A stretch of DNA of 64,000 nt from Saccostrea cucullata (lineage: Eukaryota): the NCBI RefSeq assembly GCF_032062105.1, contig NW_026929981.1, forward strand, positions 682,001 to 746,000, written 5' to 3'. The number at the start of each line of letters is the position of its first letter. Positions within the stretch are counted from its first letter, which is position 1. The notes under the pieces were generated by a model. It did not search any database. It saw only the letters and a list, made by a program, of their open reading frames with translations, and was not told the origin of the DNA. The translations under genes and the position numbers were made by a program. Below, one piece after another: positions 31,640-37,349 of the stretch.

Positions 31640-31772
31640 TCAAAATAAAGGAGAGGACATGTGATTGAAATGGCTGATGGATTTAAAAATGGTTTTAAGA
31701 ACTTGTAGATCAAATTTTACAAGGATTTGACGGAGGTGTTGGAAAATGCATCAGATGTAATTGATGATAAAG
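31640..31772 (+). pseudogene. Second copy of the late transposase exon
   Basis: KNL*IKFYKDLTEVLENASDVIDDK(G)|gt parallels AILIKFYKDVRQMIDHIK..DEE(G)|gt at 26914, with the same phase-1 donor. Confidence 0.5.
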
Positions 31773-31786
31773 GTACAAATATATAT

Positions 31787-34700
31787 TGTAACGGGACCGT
31801 CTAGGGTTAGTCCCGTATTTTAAAATGAAATTCGAGTTCAAAGGATAACGAGATTTACAGTGTTTTAAAAGATATTATATTCTGTAATAATTAACAGATT
31901 CAATACAAATATAAACAATTACATATGAAGCATTATCATATTAAAATCCTGGAGAGTGTGATAATTGATATTTACCATTAATTTCAGATTATTTTGTCCC
32001 CAATCCCCAAAAGTGCGTCTAATCTGTAGATAAGTAAAGTAACGACTCTCCCAAAATACCCCCACCGGCCGGGCTCTATAGTTCCGACACGCGCATACGC
32101 AACCCGGACGGGCAAAGGGGAATAACTCTAAAATAAATATAAGACAAAACCATCACACTCCCCCTCCCTTAAGACCTAATGTGCATTCCACATTAGTCAA
32201 AACAATAATAAATCACAATGCATATCAACATATTAAGTAAAACCACGTAAGAATCATAATTTGGAAGTAAAATATTCAAACGCATTGTGATATGAGTTAT
32301 TAAATATATAATGTACAAACAAATCATATCAAGTATTACATAAACAATTAGAGAAATAGCTATAACTTTATATTAATAAATGTTCACTTCACTCAAAGTC
32401 ATGTATTACTTATCCTACATGTTATCACACTGTACCCCTTGCTTGTGTCTAAATGGGGCGGTCCTTCGGATGAAAAAACGGATTTACAAGGTGTTACTCC
32501 TCCAAGAAAAGGTCTCCATATCAGTGTCTCTTCAATCACTGTATCTGTCTAAAAAAACGGATTTACAATTACTCCTCCAAGAAAAGGGTGACTCTTTCCT
32601 TCCGTCTCTGTATTTCCTTTTCCAGTTCTCTGTTTCCTCTGCTCCAACGCGCGTCTCGCTTCTCTTTCTCTCTGTTGATTCTCCTCCTTCCAGTTCCACG
32701 AGTCTTCGTTTGGCAATTTCCCTGGCACGTCCCAGCTGATCTGTACTATTACACATCCATGCAAGACAAGGTAGCTCTTCTTTGCTGTCTGACAGGGGAG
32801 GGGGTAAAAGACTAGGACAGTCCCTCCAAGAGGTCTGAGTAGACACAGTGGTTCCTGGGATTTCCTTCTTGGCCTGGTAATCCTCAAGCTTCTACATAGT
32901 ACCTGGTAGACACTCCTCGCTTGATCATCCTTGGCAGTCTCGGGAGCCATCTCCTCAATCTCCTTCACTGTCGGGAGGACAGTTTTATTTTCCTCGGTGA
33001 CGGATGCACCCTTGAAAACAAAAAGTCCCGGGTCAACGTAACCCCTGTTTTCCCTGACCACTGATTCACATTTCAGTAGTATAGTCTCCACGCGTTGGGG
33101 ATCCCTCTCAAGTTAGGTCCTAAAGTGGGCCCTCATGTCCGACTTACGACGGCACTCGGCCAAACAAGCAGCTACCGGGCACAAAAACTTCTTTGACTGC
33201 AATCTATGCCTCTCCTCCCAGTGTCTACTGAACTTTATCTTTGTGGGAAACTTTATCCCATCGCATCTTATCACCGGGCACGCCATATCTTTAGGGCTGT
33301 ACTATACTTCCATAAAATTTGTATCACATTGTTGCAGTACTTCGTTTACTTCGTCAAGGTTTGCAAACAGGTCAAGGAAATCGTCCTCGATCTAAAATGA
33401 ATATTATTAAAATTTTATAGATGTATTCATGTAACATTTTACATGCTGTAAAAAAAATACCCACGAGTGATATATATATGTCATATGGACAACAGCCACC
33501 CCATTGACCTAACGAGTACACATCCTAAAAAAACTATTCTAAACTACGCGCGCTGTAGTAGAATACGACACATATTGGCAGGGTAGACAAGTCACCGAAA
33601 GCAAAACCCATGGTGAAAGTACATGTCACCCATTCCAACGTTCGGAATCCAGGTTTAGTACTACTCATGTTCTCTACCGACACATCTTATGTCTTACATA
33701 GACATATAACTACATCAGCTATTTTTTTTTAAAACAACAACGTATAAAATTACATGGATAAAAAATATTTCTTAATAAAATAACAACACTCCTCCCCCTC
33801 TTAAAAAAAATAATTTATTTTGACTCGACTAAGGAGAATATCTGGAAACAGGCTTGAGAAGCCTTCCTTTCCGCGATTGTTTAAAGGATTGTAAGGGCGA
33901 GCTAGGCTGGGAGTGAGGGGATGCTTGTGGAGCATCTGCACTGTGGTTTTCTATGTCTGAGCGGGTATCTGACTCATATTCAGTCTCAGATTCCACCGAT
34001 TGACCAGAATCAGAAATGTACTGATTTTCAGACCCTTCGTCACCTTTGAGTTCTTTCAGGTGGTCAACATGAACCACATATGTTTTTCCAGTAGATGAAT
34101 TTTCAATTTCATATGTTATGTCGGACAACGGCATATGGTCCAGTCCATCCAGAGCCTAGTTTTTGTTGAGCATTTGGAGGATACCAACGCCATACTAAGT
34201 CGCCTGGTGAAAAAGCTCGAGGTTTTAACTTGATGTCATAATATATCTTTTGTCGTTTGAAACTTGATTCTAAATTTTCGTGAACAGTGGAATAAGACAA
34301 TTCCATTGAGTTTCGGACCAATTCTACATAAGAATGATAACATCCATTGTTTGGGTATTCACCTGAGGGTGAACAAGCTATATAACATCAATCGGAAGCA
34401 TTATTTCTCTCCCCAGCATGACAAGGTTTGGAGTACATTTGGTGCTTTCATGTATAGTGGCACGGTACGCCATCATCAGATAGGGAAAGTGATCATCCCA
34501 GTTCTATTTTCATCAACAAAAATGGCTAGCATCTGTTGTAAAGTGCGATTGAACCTTTCAATCATCCCGTCTGATTGGGGATGGTATGGCGTAGTACGGG
34601 ATTTGGCTATACCTAGGAGAGAGCAAATCTCAGAAAATAATTCTGACTCGAACTCCCTTCCTTGGTCCGTGTGAATGCGGTATGGTGCTCCGAATCTGCA

Positions 34701-37203
34701 TATAAACTCTGTTACCAATTTTCAATCTTCAGTATCAAAGGGAAATCCATCAGTTATCTTACCCTGAACGAATATTTTACTACTTCCGGGTACACTGACA
34801 GTTTCTGCCAAATGAATATGGGCGCACCTGCTGTGCAGACGGTCTTCCTTAAGTAAGGGAACTTCACCAAAGTGAGGTGAATATAAGATTCCATTTCTCT
34901 TATCTATCAAAACCTCGTACTTCACCAAGAAATCTAGTCCTATGATTCCAGATAGGCCTCCGAGTTTTGCTACAACGACAGAGGTATTAAATTCGCAACC
35001 TCCATATGACAATGTGACATTTGTTTTCCCTTGCACTGAAAGGAAGTCTCCGTCCGCAGTCGTTTAATTCGTATCTAACTTAGATGTGCCGGAAGTGACT
35101 CAAATACATTCTCTGATACTAAACTTAGAAATGACCCAGTGTCAACCAAGAAACAAAACTTGTTCGAATAAAGTTCAACTTCCACAAACCAACAACTCTT
35201 TGCAATAGAGTTCAATCGAACAGGAACATTTTTAGTTGGCCTATTTTCTGCTTCATCTATTAACTCTTGTGGTGCTGGGCTTATGGCCGTGAGCGCAGCC
35301 CGTTCTCGTTTAAATGACTAAAGCCATTTTTGCTTCCGTTTCCAGATTTACCATGATCAATTTTCATGATTTTGATTGTGTGGACAATTCCTGCTAATAT
35401 GACCACTCTGTTTACATGTAAAACATTTTACATTCCTTGATCCCATGTATTGCTTGGGTTGATTGTCTGGTTTCTGATCTACACACATACTAGAAAGTGT
35501 CTTTTGAACTATTCGCTCAATTGTGTTTTCCAGACCTTCATTGTTTGCATGATTACTAGAATCATTTTTATCCGGAGAAATCAATGCATTGCACTGCCGC
35601 TGTGGCAGTTTTTCAGTGTCTCTCGGTTTCCTCAATGTATTTTGAGATCATTCAAAGGATTCAAATTCCAGGGCTAAAGAAATCGCGCGATCTAATGATT
35701 TCGGGTGCGAAAATAGTACGTATCTCTTCAATTCTTGTGATCCGAGCCCAGATACAAATTGTTCAACTGTTAATCTTTCACGCATGTCCAAAAGAAAGGA
35801 CGAAAAAGAAGACTAGCTAGTCGTCTTAGTGTATAGCCATAATCTGCTACTGGTTCGCCAAACTTTCTGCGCCGGTTTCTAAATTCGCACATGTACGCAG
35901 CTTCACGCTCGGCTGGGCAGAATCTTTGTGTAAGCGCGCTTTTAAGCTCAAAGTAATTATTAAGCTCGCGACTAGTGAGTTCACTTAGAACCCTTTGAGC
36001 TTGTCCTCGAAGGCACATGGGTAGCTGAGTAGCCTTTTCACAATCCATCCATTCATTCCAGTGCGACACTTGTTCGAAGTGGCATAAATAATCGGGCCAT
36101 TGTACGTTATCGCCATTATAAAAATCGGGTTCTTTGTGCTTTTGGAATCCTATTCCAGATTTAGACAAGTATGAAAAACCAGACATTATAAAAATTTAAT
36201 CTCATTTCACAATCCCTGTCAAAACCAAATTCAGGTCTCATACTTTTATTTTCCGGTGAAAACGCAGCAAAATTTTGCTGTTCGACATCCCGCGAATCGC
36301 GATATTTCACATCTGAACTGTTTTCAATACTTTCGCGACTTTTGTCTTGTACTGTAGGTCACGTGATCGGAAAAATCTACATTCTGTTTGTTTACTGGAG
36401 AATAACGTGTGTTTTGTACGCTATTTGCGATGCATTTCGACAATCTGTGAGGATAACTAAGATTATCAATTGTTTCTTGCTCAGATAAGTCTGATTTAAG
36501 TCCATGATGATCCGATCGATTCGGAGAAAACCTCGTATGGAGCGTGTCGTATGCTGAATCACAAGCATGTAAGTAGCGAGAGGCAGATCTAGACAAACCT
36601 TTGTTATTGACATTGGAAACGTGTGCGGTTTCCTCAGAATCCTGATTGCGTCCTAATTTAGAGGGTTTTTCGTCCAATTTACTTTGCCTCCGCGTAAAAC
36701 TAGGTATGTAAAATTTCAAGAGAAACAGAATCCCATCCCAGAGGGACATTGTTTACAAAGGGAAAAAGGTGAACACACTATAAAACACCGATAAATAATT
36801 CAATTATCCTCGGAACGAGCCCCCAAATATTTATGTAACGGGACCGTCTAGGGTTAGTCCCGTATTTAAAAATGAAATCCGAGTTCAAAGGATAACGAAA
36901 TTTACAGTGTTTTAAAAGATATTATATTCTGTAATAATTAACAGATTCAATACAAATATAAACAATTACTTGTGAACATTATCATATTAAAATCCTGGAG
37001 AGTGTGATAATTGATATTTACCATTAATTTCAGATAATTTTGTCCCCAATCCCCAAAAGTGCGTCTAATCTGTAGATAAGTAAAGTAACGACTCTCCCAA
37101 AATACCCCCACCGGCCGGGCTCTATAGTCCCGACACGCGCATACGCAACCCGGACGGGCAAAGGGAAATAACTCTAAAATAAATATAAGACAAAACCATC
37201 ACA
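31787..37203 (-). mobile_element. Ty3/Gypsy LTR retrotransposon, decayed, RT/RNase H deleted
   Basis: LTRs 31787-32157 and 36834-37203; TSD ATAT; tRNA-Pro-like PBS TGGGGGCTCGT; PPT at about 32158-32169; gag with CFTCKQSGHISRNC, protease (FLVDTGS, IIGLDFL) and integrase (IHTDQGREFES, YHPQSDGMIERFN, WTGPY). Confidence 0.93.
32549..33391 (-). pseudogene. Extra ORF 3' of integrase encoding two C2H2-type zinc fingers plus a charged tail
   Basis: Acceptor TTCATTTTAG at 33392; CPVIRC..F.....FSRHWEERH and CPVAAC.........MRAHFRT*; in frame with track ORF 32549-33091; two premature stops. Confidence 0.65.
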
Positions 37204-37215
37204 ATATTATTTCAC

Positions 37216-37349
37216 CTTTTTGAGGAGTGTACTGTTCTTTTTGTACTTCGTTAAGGCATCTTCAATAAAATTTCACTTGCAGGACCGCTTCTTTTTTTGT
37301 CCCTCTTCTTCTGGCGTTTATGGCTTTTACCAGGGTTTATTTTATTTTT
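37216..37349 (-). pseudogene. Second copy of the MADS-like N-half exon
   Basis: ag|KNKINPGKSHKRQKKRDKKRSGPAS(fs)FIEDALTKYKKNSTLLKK|gt is homologous to exon 27133-26981. Confidence 0.55.

Follow-up and report, generated by a model that had tools for sequence, protein, structure and literature searches.

When a plus-strand exon and a minus-strand exon run towards each other from either side of a Gypsy insertion, does their junction reflect an accident of the locus, or the inherited layout of two opposed genes? In the window (the whole stretch of DNA analysed, 64 kb), this region is probably the dead remnant of a DNA transposon with two genes, Academ-related (DUF6589-type), that was later split by the Gypsy element, and in which a MADS-box and PHD-finger gene lies antisense, passing through predicted 3' introns of the transposase. 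The layout is likely a family trait, because the same arrangement is present in a second, 38%-identical copy. The fragment is interrupted by:

31787-37203, minus strand: decayed Gypsy-type LTR element, inserted within 22 nt of intron sequence shared by the two strands
31366-31643, no strand assigned: satellite fragments and a presumably SINE-like insert in an intron of the split copy (blastn to 156-bp arrays and to 29589-29735)

The Gypsy element is as the initial annotation had placed it, at 31787-37203 with an ATAT target-site duplication (TSD). Its LTRs (31787-32157 and 36834-37203) agree in 362 of 371 columns, have TG..CA ends and carry ATAT on both flanks. A gag piece matches PF03732 (E 5.4e-6), and a protease-like remnant can be read by eye ahead of an integrase-like one, among many stops and frameshifts; no reverse-transcriptase stretch was recognised by eye in six frames. 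The LTR ends, 4-bp duplication, gag and protease-like and integrase-like remnants are shared with Gypsy/Ty3, and the insert is an ordinary dead copy of this kind.

The split fragment, copy A, is decayed and covers ~30850-37535. Its exons of the transposase and of the opposed gene (the partner) are:

30853-31290 (3' end approximate), plus strand: transposase C-terminal exon, frameshifted and with stops (tblastn to Saccostrea gene model P0010, 82% and 66% in two frames, E 6e-45)
31651-31772, plus strand: transposase exon with IKFYKD and a G|GT donor (P0010 shares 20/23 and 9/13 residues, in two frames; E 3.9e-8)
37216-37349, minus strand: partner exon with a basic stretch and the first MADS-box half, one frameshift, four codons short (17/41 aligned residues identical to the copy B exon)
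37501-37536, plus strand: predicted last transposase exon (DLQDD), cut by a repeat (acceptor CTCCGTAG; matches the last residues of Saccostrea model P0008)

Copy B lies at ~23640-27545 and carries:

23644-23782, plus strand: transposase exon with the GEGxDFILE motif (68% and 75% to P0008)
23812-24443, minus strand: last partner exon, Ser/Pro-rich linker and PHD finger, inside a transposase intron (PF00628, E 2.4e-4, 21.5 bits, cut-off 24)
24525-24659, minus strand: partner exon, second MADS-box half, 135 nt, phase 0 at both ends (PF00319 positions 23-48 of 48, E 0.035, below cut-off)
25750-26152 (5' end approximate), plus strand: transposase C-terminal exon, homologous to 30853-31290 by sequence comparison
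26259-26914, plus strand: IKFYKD exon, interrupted by a 522-bp high-copy insert at 26293-26814 (a DNA contig joins 26292 to 26815)
26981-27134, minus strand: partner exon, first MADS-box half, 21 nt shorter than in a related contig (four RNA reads join at 27134)
27220-27269, plus strand: predicted last transposase exon, within the first intron of the partner (acceptor CTCCGTAG; D-x-x-L-x-D-D register as in P0008)
27512-27543, minus strand: first coding exon of the partner, with an ATG at 27543 and a phase that fits the following exon (four X23 reads)

Predicted partner exons lie in transposase introns and transposase exons in partner introns, and the interleaving comprises more junctions than the one at 31772/37216. 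Excision of the Gypsy element brings the plus-strand exon, ending G|GT at 31772, and the minus-strand exon, ending K|GT at 37216, to a distance of 22 nt, slightly less than the ~25 proposed. The further claim that this repeats the geometry at 26914/26981 holds for order and orientation and fails for spacing (22 nt in copy A, 66 nt in copy B).

The homology of the two copies is settled by the plus-strand exon from 30853, which lies outside the coordinates of the initial annotation and had been missed. It matches the copy B exon from ~25750 in 33 of 86 residues (38%), with a score of 137 against a maximum of 57 among 5000 shuffles. Chance likeness between stretches rich in A/T and lysine would be in keeping with the two short peptides considered earlier, which are weak alone, as would a recent duplication at the locus; the 19-residue FIED..LLKK piece by itself is not above shuffles (145/5000). 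Both are nevertheless extremely improbable, as shuffles come nowhere near the match of the upstream exon, and copy A is much nearer to the Saccostrea model (86% amino-acid identity to P0010) than to copy B. The copies therefore represent old lineages.

At the nucleotide level, the two have diverged strongly, as first described, and their DNA alignment stays within background (an equal or higher score in 2 of 338 windows). In the tblastx comparison of excised copy A with 26250-27350, the plus strand gives E 0.003 (0.10 against the whole window) and the minus strand, where copy A is frameshifted, nothing significant. With hand-chosen frames, translated similarity is present on both strands and beats all 5000 shuffles in each case (scores 51 and 72). 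The proposal that the interleaving is ancestral to a family is supported: both strands are homologous, copies A and B are far more diverged from each other than copy A is from its Saccostrea relative, and parts of the layout are retained in further copies from sequencing runs and metagenome contigs.

The plus-strand gene is predicted to splice across the MADS exon, a prediction drawn from conserved acceptors and from one gene model. That model, P0008 of Saccostrea (XP_062621416.1), strings together the four plus-strand exons in window order, and the 8-mer acceptor CTCCGTAG occurs in the window at 37493 and 27212 only. Alternatively, the G|GT at 31772 and 26914 may be unused, with the transposase stopping just behind IKFYKD, the MADS exon in its 3' flank and the junction one-sided. 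Model P0010 does end directly after the IKFYKD exon, no RNA read at copy B carries a plus-strand splice across the MADS exon, and the final exon, besides being short, has a weak match (its A/B DNA match alone is not significant, with 313/3000 shuffles and 116/325 background windows). This is an unlikely reading, however, as P0008 runs on into the DLQDD exon behind identical acceptors in copies A and B, and three diverged contigs align around the copy B block of that exon (27220-27269) and nothing else. Even if it were correct, the partner intron at 26980-24660 would still span two transposase exons. Donor-like TTAC|CT stands 31 and 30 nt behind the plus-strand donor in one contig each (X1 and X5). 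The 522-bp insert has a contig depth of ~5e5 and a second copy at 48841-49383; a candidate exon at 26259-26412 and an ATG at 26737 were rejected, both being within this high-copy insert. A word-index protein search with the plus-strand exon gave no match.

On the minus strand, one splice of the partner is present in RNA of a related copy: the loose end of four X23 reads behind 27134 equals the window from 27512 onward in 29 of 30 letters. The exon beginning at 24659 starts exactly at position 23 of the MADS model, behind a phase-0 donor after TLFNK, and host SRF may have an intron at the same K-K|A position. This second half, which comprises the end of helix I and the beta-hairpin, finds Mcm1 as its best PDB match (E 0.001; SRF, E 0.2), and 15 of the 18 matches are MADS proteins. 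The first half is less complete, with 18 codons in copy A and 15 in copy B of a 22-position register, and PDB searches with either gave chance matches or none. An X1 contig adds 21 letters at 26994-27009, and by hand reading the register then runs through 22 codons without a stop, position 8 being R and positions 14-16 K-R-K; close to the end of the exon, this contig also carries a 7-letter insertion of its own. Read in antisense, P0018 holds 22 codons in the MADS register, without the Arg, just behind an IKFY-type exon. The suggestion that FIEDALTKY..KKNSTLLKK is SRF-like with a short deletion stands as a MADS reading, by way of copy B. The gap in copy A fits better ahead of 'LTKYKK' than behind the Tyr, and in that place it takes away the conserved Arg.

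The final partner exon of copy B contains a C4HC3-like PHD pattern. PF00628 also matches the corresponding exons of two distant loci (E 6.5e-5 in L023, 0.037 in L002), all three below the 24-bit cut-off; two Trp residues, which we take to be cage-like positions, are retained in each. The MADS and PHD domains are predicted to belong to one protein. Reads at copy B include none that splices the partner into its second MADS half or its PHD exon, and copy A has neither of these in the window. A word-index protein search with the PHD exon returned four fragments only.

Of 37 motif-matched loci (27 + 10), 31 were dropped as pattern-only matches, leaving six that bear the transposase. The PHD exon occupies the same transposase intron at two of these, and its antisense stop lies 36 nt (L023) and 46 nt (L002) from the same transposase donor, as compared to 29 nt in copy B. 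At the other four, no PHD was found behind the donor, with 247 nt left at one and 940-1196 nt at the others. L028, which shares the GEGxDFILE motif, matches PF20231 at 29.8 bits (cut-off 27) with the motif inside the matched stretch. The Glu of this motif is presumably the predicted catalytic Glu, and DUF6589/PF20231 we take to denote Academ transposases. In the Pfam search, no piece of the window itself matches PF20231. L008 has no Pfam match and an Atlas lead of 0.86 only, its PDB search yielded nothing of use, and P0008 has no usable Atlas match. Neither copy A nor copy B yielded a core with the two Asp motifs. For alignment A1, the word-index protein search gave no relatives of greater length, and none of 47 metagenome stretches and none of 88 viral ones was confirmed.

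The pair might alternatively be a host gene family, now decayed, that was domesticated or never moved. Neither terminal repeats nor a target duplication could be seen around the truncated copies in the 64-kb window, and AlphaFold models (P0008, pLDDT 62, pTM 0.22; L008 core, pLDDT 38) are too poor to reveal a DDE fold. A host origin is nonetheless very unlikely given the three decayed, dispersed remnants of the element within 64 kb and the many diverged relatives, some with a DUF6589 domain. An Academ-related transposon remains the preferred reading.

In the plus-strand A/B exons, the third codon position is least conserved (0.40 versus 0.59/0.64; 0.38 versus 0.62/0.76), and in the minus-strand exon, read on its own strand, identities at positions 1/2/3 are 0.66/0.73/0.46. 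This codon-position measure compares two decayed, saturated copies and is biased, the codons having been aligned via the protein. Because exons on both strands have the pattern of protein constraint across the 38%-identity split, the partner appears to have been kept as a protein. If it is a helper subunit of the element, its MADS domain may dimerise on A/T-rich sites near the element ends, and its PHD finger may read the histone H3 tail and steer or regulate the transposase. The zipped layout would persist as each intron contains an exon of the other gene and could not be lost; deletion of the partner would remove the transposase C-terminus too, and head-on transcription would dampen expression. 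The Gypsy element would have landed at one of the few sites intronic on both strands.

The inherited layout may instead be a frozen accident: a single chance origin, by gene capture and then extension of the transposase 3' end, with no regulatory role, the partner being a passenger or serving a role unrelated to targeting. This is a serious contender, somewhat short of probable. Transposase relatives lack a PHD exon in that intron (L008, L019, L001), and spacers vary freely between 22 and 66 nt. The protein-level constraint on both strands argues against a mere passenger, and says nothing about selection of the zipper itself. The fullest functional reading is more tentative: an unnamed, Academ-related lineage of marine invertebrates might possess a two-subunit transposition machine, in which the DUF6589 transposase shares the work with a targeting subunit of MADS-PHD type, bearing a captured SRF-type domain, much as RAG1 does with RAG2, and exon zipping prevents loss or over-expression of either gene alone.

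Exon-by-exon interleaving of two opposed genes, retained at only 38% identity, is an unusual packaging for a transposon, and would hold both genes together in inheritance. Among transposon helpers, a mobile protein with MADS and PHD domains would be of a new type, and its targeting role is testable. The layout would also account for MADS-like models that turn up as strays in oyster annotations, and for antisense-nonsense ones; the N-terminus of P0010 is the antisense of the partner's linker. The parts of the literature open to full-text search held no account of a MADS- or PHD-bearing Academ element, a MADS transposon or interleaved transposase introns, and the family may already be catalogued in Repbase or Kojima 2020.

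The second half of the MADS domain is Mcm1-like, and its first half shares with SRF, Mcm1 and MEF2 (PF00319) the 22-codon register, the R and K-R-K in the related contig. Here, the domain differs in being divergent, below the Pfam cut-off, transposon-borne, multi-copy and in a predicted fusion to PHD, with deletions in the DNA-binding helix in both window copies. Harbinger (with a Myb/MADF partner), ProtoRAG (with a RAG2-like partner) and Kolobok likewise combine a transposase with a separate protein that binds DNA or chromatin and is often encoded on the other strand. These are other transposase families, their genes lie side by side, and we know of no MADS domain in them. The PHD finger known from Academ elements belongs to the transposase itself. 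The likeness to Academ lies in the DUF6589/PF20231 match among relatives with the GEGxDFILE exon, and in a second protein beside the transposase. Academ elements are described as expanded in bivalves (PMC10294476), with a helicase partner and 9-10 bp TSD in AcademH and a nuclease partner and 3-4 bp TSD in AcademX (PMC10045372); the superfamily is also treated in PMC10799480. Among the ORFs and fragments of the truncated copies in the window, no helicase or XPG-type nuclease was found. Here, the partner is instead a MADS and PHD protein, encoded by a separate antisense gene whose exons alternate with those of the transposase, and because this is the partner found, the element is filed under neither AcademH nor AcademX.

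In the locus referred to as copy A (~30850-37535), the proposed Gypsy insertion at 31787-37203 with an ATAT target duplication is borne out, as the sequence lies between matching LTRs and ATAT flanks it on both sides:

31787-32157 and 36834-37203, LTRs of the Gypsy element (362/371 columns identical, TG..CA ends)

A polypurine tract and a primer-site-like stretch show that the element runs along the minus strand; its gag piece matches PF03732, its interior contains many stops, and no reverse transcriptase was recognised in it by eye. Behind its integrase remnant lies a broken additional reading frame with a Cys/His motif (32550-33400, minus strand), the open part of which had no match in a Pfam search. 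The insertion point is intronic on both strands, and copy A was probably already dead irrespective of the insertion. After excision in silico, 22 nt separate the plus donor (after 31772) from the minus donor (37216). The junction geometry that the initial annotation held to be shared with copy B (~23640-27545) is therefore retained in its facing plus and minus donors but not in their spacing, which is 66 nt in copy B.

Among named proteins, the plus-strand protein is closest to the Saccostrea cucullata models P0008 (XP_062621416.1) and P0010 (XP_062608721.1). P0008 joins four exons present in copy B in matching order, among them:

23644-23782, plus strand, transposase exon with GEGxDFILE
~25750-26152, plus strand, transposase exon
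26259-26914, plus strand, IKFYKD exon, interrupted by a 522-bp insert

This insert is missing from a DNA contig. The 522-bp element is non-coding and very high-copy (contig depth ~5e5), has inverted sub-terminal repeats, resembles non-autonomous Helentron-type elements, and occurs at 26293-26814 and 48841-49383 in copies 90% alike. The short last transposase exon reads DLQDD in P0008 and copy A, and the acceptor preceding it, CTCCGTAG, occurs in the window only at 27212 and 37493. Taken alone, the last-exon DNA match between the copies is not significant (313/3000 shuffles); P0010 terminates ahead of this exon, and no RNA read contains the splice into it.

No piece of the window matches the DUF6589 profile, a domain associated with Academ transposases. 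Two collections scanned for the motif gave 37 loci, six of them with transposase context. Of these six, L028 matches DUF6589 above cut-off across a GEGxDFILE-type motif common with copy B, and L008 (3623-5830, plus strand) has a transposase frame of 735 residues that shares the exon end of copy B. The L028 sequence (1-1054), an animal-type DUF6589 transposase fragment, makes up a 1-kb contig assigned to the MAG of a bacterial symbiont; the contig is likely host DNA. Within the window, a third DUF6589-type remnant at 44790-45780 (minus strand) covers a larger part of the core; its identity is 47% with L023 and 38% with L028, and no adjoining partner exon was seen. At 45760-47500 lie fragments resembling a DIRS-type retroelement, in which frames like those of RNase H and a recombinase were recognised by eye.

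By tblastx, excised copy A and copy B show weak similarity on the plus strand (E 0.003 pairwise, 0.10 versus the whole window) and nothing significant on the minus strand. With frames picked by hand, their similarity exceeds 5000 shuffles on each strand, and the FIED..LLKK piece by itself falls within shuffle range (145/5000). Homology is settled by an upstream exon pair: an extra plus exon of copy A starting at 30853, revealed through P0008 and P0010, matches the copy B exon near 25750 at 33/86 residues, with a score of 137 where no shuffle exceeded 57. The 30853 exon is 86% identical to P0010, and the two comparisons together place copies A and B in long-separated lineages. In both plus exons, and likewise in the minus exon, conservation is lowest at codon position 3 when each is read on its own strand; the test is biased by alignment of codons via protein.

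The minus-strand partner is a predicted MADS-PHD gene. In copy B, the exon with TLFNK at its end (26981) leads into a phase-0 donor. The phase-0 exon at 24659-24525 (minus strand) opens at precisely position 23 of the MADS model, which has 48 positions; this exon matches Mcm1 (E 0.001), and MADS proteins make up 15 of the 18 PDB matches. The first MADS half requires 22 positions, of which copy B has 15 and copy A 18. A contig from sequencing run X1 carries 21 additional letters relative to copy B at 26994-27009 and, read by hand, an open stretch F-V-E-D-x3-R-x2-T-x2-K-R-K-x-T-L-x2-K, in register with the SRF peptide given in the initial annotation; the order of its two small insertions is ambiguous, and either order leaves the frame open. 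This contig also bears its own 7-letter insertion close to the exon end, and two others have 22 further gap letters at unlisted places. The antisense of P0018, from another lineage, gives 22 codons that fit this register but lack the Arg. In FIEDALTKY..KKNSTLLKK of copy A, which the initial annotation likened to SRF, end alignment shows T, Y/F, K-K, T-L and K kept and four codons, the Arg among them, missing.

Four of 12 X23 RNA reads, all from related copies (12/12 less than 95% alike to copy B), break at 27134 and resume with sequence matching 27512 onward (29/30 letters). This join is a splice on the minus strand, and the exon it starts from carries an in-phase ATG; the corresponding copy B intron reads GC..AG. 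The final partner exon is Ser/Pro-rich with a PHD finger, and from the splice sites we infer that MADS and PHD would lie in one protein. For copy A, the second MADS half and the Ser/Pro-PHD exon were not found within the window. Residues 1-70 of P0010, back-read, are the antisense of a Ser/Pro/Thr-rich linker resembling the partner's, and the interleaving has likely produced this N-terminus as an artefact of annotation.

Read from the left, copy B begins with a transposase exon followed by partner exons 4 and 3; next come two more transposase exons, then partner exon 2, the last transposase exon and partner exon 1. Copy A keeps the middle part, from the two transposase exons to the last. The same exon order across this long separation supports the proposal that the interleaving is an ancestral family trait rather than a local accident. 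Donor-like sites, with just 2-3 exon letters visible, also follow the plus donor at 31 nt in one X1 contig and at 30 nt in one X5 contig. An antisense PHD exon is kept in L023 and L002 as well; its stop is 36 nt (L023) and 46 nt (L002) away from the corresponding transposase donor, compared with 29 nt in copy B. No PHD was seen behind this donor in the other four of the six transposase-context loci, including L008 over the 1117 nt between motif and contig end; these transposases therefore do not all come with the partner. A 156-bp repeat forms arrays at 24656-25734, 38739-40280 and 40941-42175, two mutually inverted and one inside an intron common to both copy B genes. Just past the right part of copy B, a reverse-transcriptase-like fragment (27623-28108, minus strand, by eye) had no Pfam match.

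The partner may act as a helper subunit, by analogy with the Harbinger and ProtoRAG partners, with a predicted MADS dimer binding A/T-rich element DNA and a predicted PHD contact to histone H3 tails. Once zipped, intron loss would cost an exon of the opposite gene, partner loss would take the transposase C-terminus along, and head-on transcription would restrain output. That the layout is a frozen accident would account for it nearly as well as this helper arrangement.

The second enzyme in published Academ lineages is a helicase or a nuclease (PMC10045372), whereas the element here has a predicted, interleaved MADS-PHD partner. Academ is expanded in bivalves (PMC10294476), and the available portions mention neither MADS nor PHD there, nor MADS or DUF6589 in PMC10799480. 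Among the titles and opening abstract lines found by full-text literature searches, none describes a MADS-bearing Academ element or interleaved transposon genes. Element ends and a target duplication were not found around the window copies; the element is therefore filed as Academ-related, outside AcademH and AcademX. The contribution here is the conserved interleaving of transposase and partner exons.
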